Notes: generated by a model from the sequence alone, not told the origin. DNA of 64,000 nt from Pseudomonadota bacterium (GCA_049323435.1 JBMOMX010000032.1:18555-82554); one strand, 5' to 3'; shown: positions 46,700 to 55,670, numbered from the stretch's first letter. Numbers and translations: made by a program.

Positions 46700-48175
46700 A
46701 TGCAGCCTATTGGCACTCCAGAAATCAGGCAGCGAATTGAACGGGATAACCCGTGGTGGGCCAACGCCGATTTAGAAATTTTGGAAGCCAAATATCAGCG
46801 GCGTGTTTATTTCCCCTCATTCAAAGCATTAGCGCTGAACTTTGACGTGCGGCGCGCGGCGATTCTTCTTGGCCCCCGGCGCGTAGGCAAGACTGTAATT
46901 ATTAAGCAATTAATTCACGAAGCAATACAGGACGGTATCGATCCAAAACAAATTCTCTATGCAAGCATTGACGCTCCTATTTATTCTGGAATCTCTCTCG
47001 ACAAATTTATGGAATTCCTGCCAACCGCATCAAGAGACAAGCGCAGCGTGGTGGTTTTTGACGAAATCCAATATTTAAGGGACTGGGAAATCCACATGAA
47101 AGACCTGGTGGATAACTATCCGAGAACCAAGTTTATCGCATCTGGATCAGCCGCTGCCGCGCTTCGTTTAAAGAGTCGAGAGTCCGGAGCAGGGCGATTT
47201 TCCGAGTTCATGTTGCCGCCTCTTACATTCTATGAGTTCTTAAAATTTATTGGAGATGACGAAAAACTGATTTCAGAAAATGGTCCGGGTCAATATGAGG
47301 CAAAAGATATAGAAGCGCTTAATTCCAGATTTGTAGATTATCTGAATTTTGGGGGCTATCCAGAGGCCGTACTCAATGAAGAAGTCAGACGGAATGCAGA
47401 ACAATTTATCAGAAGCGACATCATTGACAAAGTATTGCTCAAAGATTTGCCAAGCCTTTACGGAATAAGTGATATCCAGGGCCTCAATAAATTATTTTCA
47501 TTCCTGGCGTATAACGCGGGCTCGGAAGCAAACCTCGAAAACATATCCAAAGAGTCCGGCCTGGCAAAGCCGACTATAAAAAAATATATCGAATATCTGG
47601 AAAACGCATTCCTGATCCTCAAGGTGTCGACAGTGGATGAAAACTGCCGGACTATGAAGCGAGAGCGCAATTTTAAGATTTACCTGAATAATCCATCAAT
47701 GAGAGCGGCGCTTTTTAAGCCTGTCGGAATTGAAGAGCAGGAAAAAATTGGTCACCTCGCGGAATCAGCTATTTTCTCGCAATGGCAACACGCGCCGGGA
47801 TTTCAGAGATTAAGATATGCGCGTTGGCGCAATGAGGGCGAGGTGGATATTGTATACCTTAGGCCTTCCGATGAAAAACCGTTGTGGATTGGCGAAATTC
47901 GATGGTCAGACAGAGTGAAAAATCAATTTGGCGAACAAACAAAGTCGCTATCAACATTGCTGAAAAATCATCCAACCATAAATGCGGCAATTCTTACATC
48001 GAAAACAGTCCATTCATTGAACCGCGAGCTTGAAGGCAGACACTTTGAGATTTGGCCAAGTTCACTTTATTGTTACAGCGTAGGAAGAAATATCACAGTA
48101 GCTCTTGACCAATTAGGGAGCGGGCGTTCCAGGAACCAGGCATATCAAATAAAGTATAAGGAAAATAAACCATGA
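46700..48175 (+). CDS. AAA+ ATPase of the AAA_14/DUF4143 (COG1373-like) family; likely horizontally acquired
   Basis: 491 aa; N-terminal NPWW motif, Walker A GPRRVGKT, Walker B VVFDEIQ. The gene and its upstream 110 bp are visibly AT-richer with different codon usage (AAA, ATT, TTA frequent). It sits between aroE and coaE, which are usually adjacent or separated only by maf. Confidence 0.7.
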
Positions 48176-50156: not shown

Positions 50157-50912
50157 TTGGGCCATATAGCGGATTGCAGGATGAGTCAGGGTTTTCAATT
50201 TTTCGATCTGATCCTTTTGGGAATGATTGCGGCTTTTATTCTGCTGCGGTTGCGCAGTGTGCTGGGCACGCGCACGGGCCATGAAAAACCGCCCGAAGAT
50301 ATGCGTCCGGGCCGGACCGGGCCGCAGAAGGGATCGAATGAAGGCGCAAAGGAAGGCAAGGTTATACAATTGCCGCGCCGGACATCGGCCGATGGCAATG
50401 ATAAGGCGCTATCCCCGGCAGAGATCCGCCTGCGCCAGTCGCTGACCGAAATCACGCTGGCCGATCCGCATTTCGATGCCGATGATTTCTGTGATGGCGC
50501 GCGCCAGGCCTATGAAATGATCATTCTGGCATTCGCCCAGGGCAATCGCGATTTGCTGCGCGATTGTGTCGGCGAGGAAGTCTATGCCAATTTCAATGCA
50601 GCCATCACCGCACGCGAAGCCGCCGGACAGCGCATGGAAACCCGCCTTGCCGCCATTCAGGATGCGCGCATTACGCAGGCCAGCCTGCGCGGAAAAATGG
50701 CGGAGGTTACGGTAAAATTCACCGCGGATCTGATTTCCAGCGTGCAAAATGCTGAAGGCGAACTGGTGCAGGGCCATCCCACCTTGCCGCAACAGGTTTG
50801 CGAACTCTGGACCTTTGCCCGCGCTACGGATTCCAGCGATCCAAACTGGAGCCTGATTGCGACGGCGGCAGATACTGCAAATGACACCCCTGCCACCACC
50901 CCGAAAGATTAA
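50157..50912 (+). CDS. Tim44-like domain protein
   Basis: 251 aa; an N-terminal TM helix followed by a Tim44-like C-terminal domain. This is the conserved neighbour of secB in alphaproteobacteria. Confidence 0.65.
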   Translation: MGHIADCRMSQGFQFFDLILLGMIAAFILLRLRSVLGTRTGHEKPPEDMRPGRTGPQKGSNEGAKEGKVIQLPRRTSADGNDKALSPAEIRLRQSLTEITLADPHFDADDFCDGARQAYEMIILAFAQGNRDLLRDCVGEEVYANFNAAITAREAAGQRMETRLAAIQDARITQASLRGKMAEVTVKFTADLISSVQNAEGELVQGHPTLPQQVCELWTFARATDSSDPNWSLIATAADTANDTPATTPKD

Positions 50913-52152
50913 TCCGGTCCTGGCCCTGTCCGCAGCGCTGCTGGCCGGCATGCTGATCGGCCTGTTTGCCGGGCCTGATCTGCGCCGGATGGTTGCGGGC
51001 CTGACGGCACCGCGTCCTGACCGGCTGGTGCTGCGCCAGGTCAGCTATGACGCATTGCCGGGATGGCGCCAGGATTCGCTTCAGGGCTTTATGGCGGCGC
51101 TGAACCGTTCCTGCGGCATTTTTCTTGCGCAAAAACCGGACAGGCCGGTAGGCCCGGATGGGCGGATGGGCAGGGCCGCGGACTGGAAAGCGCCCTGTGC
51201 GGCGCTGGCGCAATGGATGGTGTTGCACGGCTCCGGCCCGGACCGGTCCGGCAATCGCGAACGCGATTTTATCATGCAGCATTTTCTACCGCTTCAGGCG
51301 CTGAATAATGAGCAGAACCAGGGCCGGTTTACCGGCTATTATGAACCTGAACTGCGCGGCAGCCTGGTCAGGCAGGGCCCCTATCAGGTGGCGCTACTGC
51401 GCGCACCGGAAAATCTGGTTGCGGTCAATCTGGGGGAGTTCAATCCGAAATGGCGCGGCCAGCGCATTGCCGGGCGGGTGCAGGATGGCAGGCTGCGCCC
51501 TTTGCAGCCGCGCGCTGAAATTGTTGCCGGCGCGCTCGATGCTGAAAAGCTTGAACTGCTCTATGTCGATGATCCGGTCGATGCGTTTTTTCTGCATATT
51601 CAGGGTTCGGGCCGGGTTCGGCTGCAGGATGGCCGGGTCATCCGTGTGGGTTATGCCGGGCAGAATGGTCATCCTTACGCGGCGATCGGCAAAAATCTGG
51701 TGAAATCCGGCGCGATCCGGCGCGAAGATGTTTCCATGCAGTCGATCCGCGCCTGGCTTGAGGCGAATCCGGATGAACGCGACGCGGTCATGAACGCCAA
51801 TCCGTCCTATATTTTCTTTCAGGAACTGGCAGTGCGTGACCCCGGTCAGGGCCCCCCCGGCGCGCAGAATGTGCCGCTGACGCCGGGCCGCAGTCTGGCG
51901 GTCGATCCTGATTTTCACGCATTGGGAACGCCGGTCTGGCTGGACAGTGCGACCCCCGATGGCGAAATTTTGCAGCGCCTGATGGTGGCGCAGGACACCG
52001 GCGGCGCCATTCGCGGTCCCGTGCGCGGCGATGTGTTCTGGGGCGCGGGCGCGAAGGCTGCGCAAACCGCCGGACACATGAACAGCGAAGGGCGTATGTA
52101 TATTCTCGTGCCGCGCGCGGTGGCGGCACGTGCGATTGATGGCACATCTTAA
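50881..52152 (+). CDS. mltA: membrane-bound lytic murein transglycosylase A
   Basis: Start placed at the ATG giving MTPLPPP... (signal/anchor LALSAALLAGMLIGLFA). The MltA and 3D domain regions are recognisable (YYEPELRGS..., ...DTGGAIRG). Confidence 0.75.
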   Translation: MTPLPPPRKINPVLALSAALLAGMLIGLFAGPDLRRMVAGLTAPRPDRLVLRQVSYDALPGWRQDSLQGFMAALNRSCGIFLAQKPDRPVGPDGRMGRAADWKAPCAALAQWMVLHGSGPDRSGNRERDFIMQHFLPLQALNNEQNQGRFTGYYEPELRGSLVRQGPYQVALLRAPENLVAVNLGEFNPKWRGQRIAGRVQDGRLRPLQPRAEIVAGALDAEKLELLYVDDPVDAFFLHIQGSGRVRLQDGRVIRVGYAGQNGHPYAAIGKNLVKSGAIRREDVSMQSIRAWLEANPDERDAVMNANPSYIFFQELAVRDPGQGPPGAQNVPLTPGRSLAVDPDFHALGTPVWLDSATPDGEILQRLMVAQDTGGAIRGPVRGDVFWGAGAKAAQTAGHMNSEGRMYILVPRAVAARAIDGTS

Positions 52153-52354
52153 AATAATGACCAACGCTATTTTAATAAAGTCTCGCTTATTAAAATAGTG
52201 ATCATTGTTATTTAAAATTATATGCCTTTACTAAAATAATGTCCTGGGCTATTTTAGTAGACGGTGAAGATACACGTTATAAGTGAATCAATCGCTATAT
52301 TCACTACCATGCATTGGATCTGGCTGGTCCGGTCGATACACTGAAAGCTGATCG

Positions 52355-53488
52355 ATGAAATTTGAGTCATTCAGCGCTGGCGAATGGAAAAAGCAATATC
52401 AGTATAAAAGCTTTTCTCCTGCATTGATAAATCATGAATGGGGCTGGGATGACCCGCGCATTAATGTTTTGCTTGAACAGGCAATGCGGGCGCTTGGTGA
52501 ATTGAACGCTTTTTCTTTTATTGTCCCAAATGTAGACATTTTTATACAAATGCATATCGCCAAAGAGGCACACACTTCAAATCGCATTGAAGGGACGAAA
52601 ACAGCCTTTGAAACGGAACTGATGCCGGAAGAAGCGATACCACCAGAAAATCGTGACGATTGGCATGAGGTGCAGAATTATATGGCCGCCATGAATATGG
52701 CGGTTCAGGAATTACAGCGCCTGCCGGTCTCAACCCGGTTATTGTGTCAAACACATGCAATTGTGATGCAGGGGGTCAGAGGTCAACATAAAACTCCCGG
52801 AGAACTACGCCGGGCGCAAAACTGGATCGGTGGTTCAGGGCCAATGGATGCAGCCTTTGTGCCGCCGCATCCAGATGAGGTATCCGGTCTGATGGGCGAT
52901 CTGGAAAAATTTCTGCATAATGAGGAAATAATGGTGCCCGATCTGGTGCGGGCCGCCATTGCGCATTATCAGTTCGAGACTATCCACCCCTTTAATGACG
53001 GTAATGGTCGGGTCGGGCGGCTGTTGATTACACTTTATCTCGTGAGCAAGGGGATTCTGCAAAAGCCCTCGCTTTATCTTTCGGATTTTTTTGAACGCAA
53101 CCGGTCTTCCTATATTGACGCTCTGATGCGGGTGCGCACTGCAAACGATATCGGACATTGGGTGCGATTTTTCCTTGCCGGGGTTTTGGAAATTTCAAAA
53201 AAAGGACGCGACACGTTCAAGGCTATTCAGGTGTTACGCGAAGAAGCGGAGAATCAATGTTTGAGCCTTGGAAGGCGGGCGCCAATGGCGAAGCGTGCGT
53301 TGACCTTGCTTTACCGCCGTGTTGTTGTATCGGCCAAAGATATAGAAATAGAGCTTGGCGTAACCAGCGCGACAGCAAACGCAATCATTCGCGATTTTAT
53401 AAAAATGCAGATATTACGCGAAACTACTGGAAAGAGCCGGCGCCGGTTATATGTGTTTGACCGGTATTTACAGCTGTTCATGGACTGA
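52355..53488 (+). CDS. Fic family protein, class II (intramolecular inhibitory helix); likely horizontally acquired
   Basis: 377 aa; Fic motif HPFNDGNGRVGR. An inhibitory S-x3-E-G motif (SNRIEG) lies N-terminal to it. There is a C-terminal winged-helix-like tail. The gene and its 200-bp upstream region are strongly AT-rich. Confidence 0.85.
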   Translation: MKFESFSAGEWKKQYQYKSFSPALINHEWGWDDPRINVLLEQAMRALGELNAFSFIVPNVDIFIQMHIAKEAHTSNRIEGTKTAFETELMPEEAIPPENRDDWHEVQNYMAAMNMAVQELQRLPVSTRLLCQTHAIVMQGVRGQHKTPGELRRAQNWIGGSGPMDAAFVPPHPDEVSGLMGDLEKFLHNEEIMVPDLVRAAIAHYQFETIHPFNDGNGRVGRLLITLYLVSKGILQKPSLYLSDFFERNRSSYIDALMRVRTANDIGHWVRFFLAGVLEISKKGRDTFKAIQVLREEAENQCLSLGRRAPMAKRALTLLYRRVVVSAKDIEIELGVTSATANAIIRDFIKMQILRETTGKSRRRLYVFDRYLQLFMD

Positions 53489-53496
53489 AATAAATA

Positions 53497-54246
53497 ATGA
53501 CTACCAGTCACACTGTCGCGCTGTTCGTAACCTGTCTGGTGGATTTGTTCCGCCCGTCGGCGGCGTTTGCGGCGGTGAAACTGTTACAGGATGCGGGATG
53601 CACAGTCAGCGTGCCGCAGGCGCAGACCTGTTGCGGCCAGCCTGCCTATAATTCCGGCGATAAAAAAAATGCCTCGGCATTGGCGGCGCAAACCATCCGT
53701 AGCCTGATGGATTATGACTATGTGGTGGTGCCGGGCGGCTCCTGCGCCGCGATGATCAAACATCATTATCCCGAACTGCTGGCGGGCGATGCGGCATTGG
53801 CGGGCGCGGCGCGTGCGCTTGCGGGAAAAACGCATGAGCTGACGCAGTTTCTGCATGAGGTCATGCACTATAAACCGGCCGTATCTGGCGGGGAAAAAAT
53901 CACTTATCTGGATAGCTGTTCCGGCCTGCGCGAGCTGACTATAAAGGACCAGCCGCGCGCCATGCTGGGATCGCGCATCGTGGAAAATCAGGATAGCGAA
54001 ACCTGTTGCGGTTTTGGCGGCACCTTCTGCGTCAAATATACGTCTGTTTCCACCGCGATGGCCGACAAGAAGCTGTACAGGCTCGCCGCCACTGGCGCGG
54101 TCCTGGTAGCGGGCGGCGATCTGGGCTGTCTGATGCATCTGGCCGGGCGCGCGGCGCGCCGCGATATGAAATTGCAGTTCCGGCATGTTGCGGAAATTCT
54201 GGCGGGCGATGACCAAACGCCCGCCATCGCGGCAGAGGAAAAATAA
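53497..54246 (+). CDS. lutA: lactate utilization protein A (CCG-domain Fe-S oxidoreductase)
   Basis: 249 aa; two cysteine-rich CCG-like regions (TCCGQP..., ETCCGFGG). Confidence 0.8.
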   Translation: MTTSHTVALFVTCLVDLFRPSAAFAAVKLLQDAGCTVSVPQAQTCCGQPAYNSGDKKNASALAAQTIRSLMDYDYVVVPGGSCAAMIKHHYPELLAGDAALAGAARALAGKTHELTQFLHEVMHYKPAVSGGEKITYLDSCSGLRELTIKDQPRAMLGSRIVENQDSETCCGFGGTFCVKYTSVSTAMADKKLYRLAATGAVLVAGGDLGCLMHLAGRAARRDMKLQFRHVAEILAGDDQTPAIAAEEK

Positions 54247-55670
54247 TGCAGCGCCATCCCGCCGCCTTTAACGCCAATGCCGCCGAGGCGCTGCTGGATG
54301 CGGATTTGCAGGCGGCGCTGGGCGCGGCCGAAGCGGGCTTTGGCGTCAAGCGCCGCAAGGCCATTCAGGGCCTGCCGGAGTTCGAGGCGCTCTGTGATCA
54401 GGCGGCGGCGATCAAGGACCATGTGCTGGATCATCTGGATGTGTATCTGCAACGTTTTGAGGCGCAGGTCTTCGCCGCCGGCGGCATGGTGCACTGGTGC
54501 GAGGATGCGCAGCAGGCGCGCGAGGTCATTCTGAAAATCTGCCGCTCGGTGAACGCCAAAACCGTGACCAAGGGTAAAAGCATGGTGGCCGAGGAAGTGG
54601 GACTCAACCCGTTTCTGGAGGCCCATAATATCCGCCCGATCGAAACCGATCTGGGCGAATATATTATTCAGTTGGCGGAAGAACCCCCCAGCCACATTAT
54701 CGGCCCGGCCCTGCACAAAACCAAGGATCAGGTGTCGGATCTGTTTCATGCGCATCATGCGCCGCTTGGCTTTACCGAGCGCCAATCTTCGGGCGAGGCG
54801 CTGGTCGGCGAGGCGCGCGCTATTTTGCGCCAGAAATATCTGGTGGCCGATGTGGGCGTAACGGGCGCGAATTTCCTGATCGCGGAAACCGGCAGCACCG
54901 TCATCGTCACCAATGAAGGCAATGGCGATATGACGCAGATTTTCCCGCGCGTGCATATTGTTATCGCCAGCATCGAAAAAATCGTCCCGACGCTGGAGGA
55001 TACGGCCACCTTGTTGCGCGTGCTGGCGCGTTCCGCTACCGGACAGGAAATGTCCGTATACACCACATTTTCGACGGGGCCAAAGCGGCGCGGCGATGCC
55101 GATGGCCCGGAACAGTTTCATGTGGTGTTGCTGGATAATGGGCGCAGCGCCATGCTGGGCGGCGCGCAACGCGATATGCTGCGCTGTATCCGCTGCGGCG
55201 CCTGCATGAATAATTGCCCGGTCTATATGGCGGCGGGCGGCCATGCCTATGGCGCGACCTATATGGGGCCGATGGGCGCCGTGCTGACCCCCAATCTTGA
55301 AGGCGTGAAACGCGCCCAGGCGCTGCCCTTCGCCTCAACCTTCTGCGGCAAATGCGAAACGGTCTGCCCGGTGCGCATTCCGCTTCCCAAACTGATGCGG
55401 GAATTGCGCAGCGCGGCGCATATGGCGCGGCTGACGCCTGCGCGCGAACGGCTATGGCTGGCGCTCTGGTCGTGGGTGGCGCAACGGCCCGAACTCTATC
55501 ATCGGCTTGGCGGCGCGGGGATGCGTATCCTCGCCATGCTGGCCCGTGGAAAGGGGCGCTTTGGCTGGCTGCCGCTGGCGGGCGGCTGGACAGGCACGCG
55601 CGATTTCCCAGCGCCCCAGGGCGAAAATTTCATGGCGCAATGGGCGCGGGGCGAAAAGGATACGCCATGA
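54246..55670 (+). CDS. lutB: lactate utilization protein B (4Fe-4S ferredoxin-type)
   Basis: 474 aa; two CxxCxxCxxxCP clusters (CIRCGACMNNCPV; CGKCETVCPV) and a DUF162 region. Confidence 0.85.
   Translation: MQRHPAAFNANAAEALLDADLQAALGAAEAGFGVKRRKAIQGLPEFEALCDQAAAIKDHVLDHLDVYLQRFEAQVFAAGGMVHWCEDAQQAREVILKICRSVNAKTVTKGKSMVAEEVGLNPFLEAHNIRPIETDLGEYIIQLAEEPPSHIIGPALHKTKDQVSDLFHAHHAPLGFTERQSSGEALVGEARAILRQKYLVADVGVTGANFLIAETGSTVIVTNEGNGDMTQIFPRVHIVIASIEKIVPTLEDTATLLRVLARSATGQEMSVYTTFSTGPKRRGDADGPEQFHVVLLDNGRSAMLGGAQRDMLRCIRCGACMNNCPVYMAAGGHAYGATYMGPMGAVLTPNLEGVKRAQALPFASTFCGKCETVCPVRIPLPKLMRELRSAAHMARLTPARERLWLALWSWVAQRPELYHRLGGAGMRILAMLARGKGRFGWLPLAGGWTGTRDFPAPQGENFMAQWARGEKDTP

Follow-up and report, generated by a model that had tools for sequence, protein, structure and literature searches.

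How did a gene for a Fic protein come to stand between mltA and the lactate utilisation genes lutABC, and does the short direct repeat around it record its arrival? The locus lies in a 64,000-nt stretch of DNA from a Pseudomonadota bacterium (GCA_049323435.1 JBMOMX010000032.1:18555-82554; hereafter the window), in which the gene, fic, and its upstream region form an AT-rich island. A preliminary description, made from the sequence alone, took the 10-bp repeat at the edges of the island for a target-site duplication. The explanation that best covers the locus as a whole, and that we regard as reasonably probable, is an old insertion of a self-repressed gene of the SoFic family, with the repeat being no footprint of that event.

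Composition sets the island apart, as the preliminary description had noted. The GC content of fic is 0.479 (0.489 at third codon positions, GC3) and that of the 202-nt spacer upstream of it only 0.35, compared with 0.57–0.63 (GC3 0.62–0.74) for the neighbouring genes and 0.572 for the entire window; in the window profile, the fic region is one of just two 1-kb bins below 0.50. Loci from other genomes that were compared with the window are referred to by L-numbers. The closest genomes retrieved by an MltA search belong to uncultured alphaproteobacteria, and three of them provide the empty site that had been proposed as a check: the mltA stop codon and the lutA ATG are separated by 2 nt in L002, 1 nt in L003, and 11 nt in L004, with a Shine-Dalgarno-like stretch (AAGGA and AGGAAAG, respectively) at the mltA end in L002 and L003. 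Moreover, the fic-free gene order tim44-mltA-lutABC-smr recurs at more than 25 distant alphaproteobacterial loci. Neither the list of open reading frames (ORFs) nor the gene calls contain a convincing gene other than fic between mltA and lutA. Judged by these comparisons, fic is a single-gene insertion at this place, and its predicted position immediately upstream of lutA is borne out.

The insertion is shared with relatives. Three other related lineages (L001, L106, and L197) carry fic at the identical spot, and in L001 and L106 the gene is again distinct in composition (GC 0.49, GC3 0.50–0.52) from its flanks (0.58–0.64). All 16 conspecific contigs examined contain fic, and exact-protein look-ups of Fic and LutA revealed no empty-site allele within the species of the window. 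Across the island and leader, these contigs vary at three positions alone (52160, A/G, and 52300 and 52303 in the leader), and they do not differ in the coding sequence of fic. In the protein tree, the Fic sequences from the four filled sites group together (bootstrap 77) inside a 99% clade, whose other members, L091 and L094, are both encoded at unrelated loci; the insertion therefore appears to predate the divergence of the four lineages. Among the window, L001, and L106, the Fic proteins share 80–85% of their amino acids, but their genes are identical at only 44–54% of fourfold sites, which points to purifying selection. The flanking genes are at least as similar at such sites (0.50–0.68, against 0.44–0.54 for fic), so nothing points to a recent transfer, and the pattern fits a single old insertion followed by co-divergence with the flanks. 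The island (about 52150-53488) would then be an anciently inserted class II Fic AMPylase module, a promoter-plus-gene cassette that went into the 1–11-nt mltA-lutA gap a single time, before at least four related lineages of uncultured alphaproteobacteria separated from their common ancestor.

The same gap is occupied by other genes elsewhere. In distant alphaproteobacteria it holds one or two host-like, GC-rich genes (L007 9251-9745; L017 3628-4209 and 4452-4949; L037 4713-5270) whose products are small, rich in glycine, and hydrophobic and lipoprotein-like at the N-terminus, and L051 and L061 have other small ORFs of host GC content there. The gap has thus taken in genes more than once; the five loci were considered as signs of an insertion hot spot, but their genes are host-like and none is a defence gene.

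The product of the intact fic ORF (377 amino acids) carries both diagnostic motifs of a class II Fic protein in one chain, as had been claimed. The catalytic motif H211-PFNDGNGRVGR-222 conforms to HxFx(D/E)GNGRxxR (Pfam Fic, E = 6e-20), and the inhibitory-helix motif S75-NRIEG-80, of the form (S/T)xxxE(G/N), precedes the Fic core on the N-terminal side (Pfam Fic_N, E = 7e-21). In 17 homologues H211, P212, D215, G216, N217, G218, R219, G221, and R222 are invariant and F213 is nearly so, and the same holds without exception for S75, I78, E79, and G80 of the inhibitory motif. The PADLOC profile for SoFic (PDLC03963) is matched with E = 2e-113 by residues 16-375 over positions 5-358 of 361, and the structure of SoFic (3EQX/3ZCN) aligns over residues 10-374 (E ~6e-28), with S75-NRIEG-80 falling on SSEIEN of SoFic; 9VJC and the M. 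marinum Fic protein 7CB8 also match. An N-terminal helical region and the Fic core are followed by a C-terminal winged helix (residues ~290–377), and homologues yield HTH_13, MarR_2, or HTH_24 matches. The structure model, which is of low confidence (mean predicted local distance difference test score, pLDDT, 59; shallow alignment) and lends weak support only, has its best fold matches in SoFic, M. marinum Fic 7CB8, 7XUX, and C. burnetii Fic2, and its C-terminal part (~290–370, block pLDDT 78–93) resembles a winged helix and matches MarR/ArsR regulators. By these motif and profile assignments the protein is a class II AMP-transferase of the SoFic family with predicted AMP transfer activity, and fic is an ordinary example of a known defence or toxin gene. 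The roles suggested for it earlier (toxin, regulator, or abortive-infection factor) agree with what is reported for this family: SoFic is a stand-alone, single-gene anti-phage system (10.1101/2022.05.11.491447; PMC12249575), and protection against phage T5 as well as toxicity of the wild-type protein are described (PMC12249575). Dimeric SoFic binds its own AT-rich promoter and AMPylates EF-Tu; it is also an efficient deAMPylase and was proposed to be a dual transcriptional and translational regulator (bioRxiv 10.64898/2026.07.09.737422).

What the analysis adds, modestly, is a conserved operator-like array upstream of the gene. The pattern TAAAATA-N11-TATTTTA, with two mismatches allowed, occurs three times in the 64 kb against an expectation of 0.04, and all three occurrences lie upstream of fic. 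Two such units precede fic in L106, L001, L197, L091, and L094, with −164 and −123 relative to the fic ATG as their typical positions, and three in the window, whose third unit is at the position of unit B of L106 and L094 (−123; −118 in L001). The spacing of the units is exactly 41 nt in all six lineages, including L091 and L094 with their unrelated loci. Homology between the cassettes starts at the first unit and stops at the fic stop codon. When 13 units were compared, the two 7-nt half-sites were the most conserved columns, spacer (11 nt) and linker (16 nt) were variable, and departures from the palindrome within a unit are uncompensated. Conserved half-sites with uncompensated departures are what one would expect of protein-binding sites. 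Unit 3 probably overlaps the fic core promoter, since it coincides with a putative −10 box (TATTTT, 52250-52255) and touches a putative −35 box (TTTACT, 52227-52232), a pair that scores 8/12 and thus falls below the scan threshold of 9/12; the promoter-like matches that the scan did report (52190-52218 and 52211-52240) are also inside the array. In the relatives, the right half-site of the gene-proximal unit reads TATTTC, TAATTT, or TAATAT, as if it doubled as the −10 box. A 13-codon mini-ORF, MTNAILIKSRLLK (52158-52199, +), has its ATG in the left copy of the 10-bp repeat, 5 nt past the mltA stop, and spans units 1 and 2; it is probably meaningless, because its counterpart in L106 has 6 codons and L197 has none.

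How such an array might work is suggested by CccR (YPK_0951) of Yersinia pseudotuberculosis. This Fic-HTH protein is a toxin that represses itself; it, too, joins a class II Fic part to a C-terminal domain of DNA-binding type, and its dimer represses its own promoter by recognising a palindrome near the −35 and −10 boxes (PMC9755527). A palindromic operator-like sequence in the gene's own promoter region is present here as well, and CccR thus provides the mechanistic model. The two systems differ in that the CccR operator is one AGATAATCAT-N26-ATGATAATCT site rather than two or three TAAAATA-N11-TATTTTA units in 41-nt register, and in that CccR is an effector secreted by a type VI secretion system (T6SS), with its gene beside T6SS effector genes; no T6SS-related Pfam match was obtained among the genes called within ~6 kb on either side of fic, and the similarity of the two proteins is distant only. 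SoFic itself (Shewanella oneidensis SO_4266; Millman et al., PADLOC model) is of the same length class, has the same succession of N-terminal helix, class II Fic core, and C-terminal winged helix, and is also preceded by an AT-rich region. The protein of the window contains an extra NWIGGSGPMDAAF segment, which it has in common with M. marinum Fic 7CB8; an operator sequence with a 41-nt phased array is not described for SoFic, and fic, known here from sequence alone, is set in a housekeeping operon. If the analogy with CccR and SoFic holds, dimeric Fic would use its winged-helix domains to bind the phased palindromes and would repress its own promoter, and this autorepression together with the intramolecular Glu79 would keep a potentially toxic AMPylase activity low. 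Upon activation, for example by phage infection, AMPylation of a cellular target, possibly EF-Tu, might then cause growth arrest.

Such restraint would have to be exerted within the single gene. EcSofic of E. coli H397 is likewise a SoFic-family toxin whose basal activity has to be held down, but this is achieved by a 47-amino-acid antitoxin, AS1, encoded downstream; since lutA starts 8 nt past the fic stop, there is no room for an AS1-like gene, and the inhibitory helix and autorepression would take its place. The class I modules VbhT/VbhA and FicT/FicA also consist of a Fic-fold AMP-transferase toxin controlled by an inhibitory glutamate, yet their inhibitory helix is situated on a separate antitoxin, unlike the S75-NRIEG-80 motif in the Fic chain itself; in agreement with the preliminary description, no small partner gene adjoins fic.

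Homologues of this Fic protein form a large and remarkably conserved subfamily (63–85% identity in Devosia, Prosthecomicrobium, Magnetospirillum, Sulfuritalea, and Desulfomicrobium), and many are found in defence settings. They are encoded in type I restriction-modification (R-M) operons (L108 and L109), between helicase and methylase genes (L091, L195, and L107), and, in L096, ahead of genes for an ATPase (AAA_13) and for a restriction enzyme of type ISP. Compared with these defence-locus genes (63–85% identical) the copy in the window is solitary, and unlike the gene in the R-M operon of L108 it has a palindrome array and a promoter region of its own. Homologues on viral contigs reach at most 66% identity (64% for the best full-length match) and those on plasmids ~41%; no palindrome array was present at the six viral loci checked. 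A metagenome scan with Fic retrieved only seven loci, mostly from the same organism. tRNA genes are located upstream of two homologues, tRNA-Ala at ~320 nt (L094 4608-4683) and tRNA-Met at ~780 nt (L096 4145-4221), and these two loci look like tRNA-associated defence islands. The closest cassettes outside the mltA-lutA site (84% identical; L091 6157-6372, L195 2323-4655, and L196 1943-3072) follow the 3′ end of a large gene and are followed in turn by the start of an apparent DNA methylase gene, with DUF3800 and N6_N4_Mtase genes nearby and, in L196, an IS3-type transposase; the setting looks like a decaying R-M or other defence locus.

Several observations weigh against an old insertion of a self-repressed SoFic-family gene. 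The protein is only roughly 30% identical to SoFic and scores 147.9 bits against the NCBIfam SoFic equivalog (NF046030), whose cut-off is 550; because the score is so far below this value, the protein is by sequence a subfamily distinct from the SoFic equivalog. That it binds DNA, represses its own promoter, AMPylates a particular target, and acts against phages is proposed by analogy. Unlike many of its homologues, fic stands among housekeeping genes and not in a defence island. Its GC3 is still ~0.5 in hosts with a GC3 of ~0.7 despite the age proposed here, so that either selection has maintained this composition or the gene is younger than assumed. Finally, the host tree (MltA, LutA, and LutB) is star-like, with bootstraps of 13–48, and does not fix whether the empty lineages L002 and L003 fall outside the fic group or have lost the gene; on such a tree a single gain cannot be separated from gain and loss or from spread by homologous recombination. 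The resemblance of the junctions to a footprint and the folding of the array as RNA count on the same side, and are dealt with under the alternatives to which they belong.

The first of these alternatives is that fic has been domesticated and serves mainly in regulation, by tuning translation through reversible AMPylation of EF-Tu and/or by controlling lutABC, instead of acting against phages. That purifying selection has kept the gene intact, at the one housekeeping locus, while four lineages diverged would be expected in this case, and so would the arrangement of the downstream genes: the 8-nt spacer between fic and lutA (53489-53496) lacks a Shine-Dalgarno sequence, and the scan found no terminator-like site after the fic stop, the nearest match being inside the fic coding region. 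For these reasons lutABC is probably co-transcribed with fic and perhaps translationally coupled to it. The proposed dual role of the deAMPylase SoFic in transcription and translation agrees with a regulatory function as well. However, close homologues reside in R-M and other defence loci, the PADLOC SoFic profile is matched over its full length, the empty relatives possess lutABC without fic, and the 64-kb pattern scan detected no operator half-site pair near lutA. We thus consider a mainly regulatory role unlikely.

The repeat, AAATAATGAC, is real and occurs exactly twice in the 64 kb (a 9/10 copy is located at 52234). Its left copy was placed correctly in the preliminary description and its right copy one base too high, and the right copy does hold the lutA start codon, with the ATG at 53497. 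What the comparisons do not support is the interpretation as a target-site duplication marking the boundaries of the insertion. The left copy lies within the first of the three 25-nt palindromic units and thus is cassette sequence: the 41-nt unit that holds it is identical at 31 of 41 positions to unit A of the L091 cassette at its helicase/methylase locus, and TAAAATAATG also opens unit B of L197. No comparable flanking repeat was found at the fic junctions of L106, L001, and L197. Within the species, position 52160, which is A in the window, is G in 12 of the 16 conspecific contigs, so that the exact repeat is shortened to 8 nt and the perfect one is a minority allele. The 10-bp repeat is very probably not an insertion footprint, and its perfection would be a strain-level coincidence, to which we give the same fair degree of credence as to the account as a whole. 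The left copy would consist of operator half-site and spacer, and the right copy of AT-rich spacer and lutA start codon. The preliminary description had stated that fic at the same site in relatives with the same flanks and host-like composition, or a match away from the true boundaries, would speak against it; fic was indeed found at the same site and the match is not at conserved boundaries, although the composition of the gene in the relatives is not host-like.

The junctions of the window look derived, because the first palindrome abuts the mltA stop, whose TAA (52150-52152) overlaps it, and because the right spacer has only 8 nt and lacks a Shine-Dalgarno sequence. In the three relatives with fic at this site the distance from the mltA stop to the first palindrome is 9, 9, and 56 nt, and fic and lutA are separated by spacers of 18–21 nt with a purine-rich, Shine-Dalgarno-like stretch (L001 10625-10645, L106 6135-6152, and L197 1420-1440). 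LutA begins with Met-Thr in the window, L106, and L001, with Met-Ile in L197, and with Met-Pro or Met-Ser in the empty-site relatives. The right copy might have been produced by a remodelling of the junction particular to the lineage of the window.

Nonetheless, the repeat could be a genuine footprint, either as a target-site duplication or, more plausibly, as a core that was duplicated when the cassette integrated by a Campbell-type or microhomology-guided route. In its most viable form, the operator half-site TAAAATAATGAC of the cassette would have paired with a similar junction of mltA stop and lutA start, which would also account for the likeness of the left copy to unit A of L091. A 10-nt exact match between the junction zones arises in only 0.1–0.8% of shuffles (P = 0.001–0.008), and the stop of mltA and the start of lutA are precisely where the two copies lie. 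Deleting one copy of AAATAATGAC leaves TAA-AATA-ATG, a junction like those of the empty sites, of which L003 reads GAAAATAATATGCC. L106, too, has ATGAC just past its mltA stop (TAA-TT-ATGAC); this was considered as a relic of the lutA start but put down to chance, since L197 has the same 9-nt left spacing with unrelated sequence. Against a footprint stands the absence of the repeat from the three relatives although the four Fic proteins form a clade, together with the old divergence: given the fourfold-site divergence, a neutral pair of 10-mers would not be expected to stay identical. For the 8-nt majority allele, moreover, the shuffle probability of an exact match of at least 8 nt rises to 0.02–0.04. 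Derived junctions, with a spacer 12–13 nt shorter on each side and an extra operator unit, and the lack of empty alleles among the conspecific contigs examined do not favour a footprint either. A transposable element or integrase island with target-site duplication is characterised by a boundary repeat wherever it is inserted and by terminal inverted repeats and/or a recombinase, and the island of the window fails on each count: the repeat scan of the window found no terminal inverted repeats joining the island ends, no integrase, transposase, or other recombinase gene is present in the island, and on the right the island ends no more than a few bases from the stop codon of fic. A perfect 10-nt inverted repeat (52077-52086 and 53473-53482) was dismissed as a pair of element ends because both of its arms are inside coding sequence. 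Overall, a footprint appears quite improbable to us.

The probability is similarly low that the palindromes constitute an RNA element, whether as a leader structure or by terminating or attenuating read-through from mltA. The 136-nt array stretch folds with −31.8 kcal/mol (z = −4.4), and a helix between units, in which the right half of A pairs with the left half of B, reaches 89% pairing over the lineages, with two flanking pairs that change on both sides. But any palindrome array must fold in silico, the covariation score was matched by 43 of 500 shuffles, and the half-sites are kept in sequence and not merely in pairing, their departures (including those in the units of L106) being uncompensated. 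The hairpins are not followed by a U-tract, no terminator-like site was called there by the scan, and no Rfam family matches the array or the leader. If the promoter is within the array, units 1 and 2 would not even be transcribed from it. Furthermore, related Fic proteins with winged helix-turn-helix (wHTH) domains were shown to bind their own promoters.

A more far-reaching combination of ideas would make the cassette mobile without an integrase, its phased operator array serving also as the site of recombination, with the repeat and the extra 41-nt unit as the scar of a microhomology or Campbell-type event that put lutABC under a toxin-repressor. If this were true, lactate utilisation would be under the control of that toxin-repressor, but we regard the joint proposition as very unlikely. 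That fic is ancestral to the locus and was deleted from the empty relatives is hardly credible: the star-like host tree and the interleaving of the empty L002 and L003 with the filled lineages in single-gene identities would permit it, but the fic-free adjacency of mltA and lutA in L004 and more than 25 distant alphaproteobacterial genomes, the foreign composition of gene and leader, and the unrelated loci of the closest Fic relatives argue for an insertion, and a secondary loss in L002 or L003, though possible, would leave this origin unchanged.

The features of the locus are compiled in Table 1. For mltA, the ORF list offers an alternative upstream start (TTG at 50857). An alignment of the fic leader across cassettes has conserved blocks solely near the start codon.

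Table 1. Positions of the genes, repeat copies, and palindromic units around fic, counted from the first nucleotide of the window.
Feature	Position	Strand	Basis or remark
mltA (lytic murein transglycosylase A)	50881-52152	+	Pfam MltA and 3D; 423-amino-acid call in identical contigs
Palindrome unit 1, TAAAATA-ATGACCAACGC-TATTTTA	52150-52174	.	Pattern scan; contains left copy of the 10-bp repeat
Left copy of AAATAATGAC	52152-52161	+	Base 52160 is A here
Palindrome unit 2, TAAAATA-GTGATCATTGT-TATTTAA	52191-52215	.	Starts 41 nt after unit 1
Palindrome unit 3, TAAAATA-ATGTCCTGGGC-TATTTTA	52232-52256	.	−123 from fic ATG
Presumed fic 5′ untranslated leader	52257-52354	+	Ends in weak ribosome-binding region GAAAG
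fic (class II Fic AMP-transferase, SoFic family)	52355-53488	+	Pfam, PADLOC, structure alignments
Right copy of AAATAATGAC	53492-53501	+	5 nt before lutA start plus ATGAC (Met-Thr)
lutA	53497-54246	+	Pfam CCG and LUD domains; synteny in relatives
lutB	54246-55670		Downstream of lutA
lutC	ends 56344		Downstream of lutB, followed by smr

Apart from a candidate defence ATPase gene ~4 kb away, fic is solitary. Like fic, this gene (46700-48175, +) is AT-rich and was inserted singly into the housekeeping array, here between aroE and coaE, and it accounts for the minimum of the 1-kb GC profile of the window (0.435). Its product, a 491-amino-acid AAA_14/DUF4143 ATPase, matches the PADLOC candidate defence family PDC-S01 (E = 7e-54). 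The gene is missing in L106, with 2 nt from the stop of aroE to the ATG of coaE, and in L001, where 3 nt separate the two ORFs.

Apart from an operator prediction and an example of insertion, the locus leaves the current understanding of Fic proteins unchanged. The example is a clean natural case in which a SoFic-family gene entered a compact housekeeping operon and stayed intact and compositionally foreign while its host lineages diverged. For the Fic-wHTH subfamily, the phased palindromes amount to a testable operator prediction, which would extend the findings on autoregulation made for CccR and SoFic.

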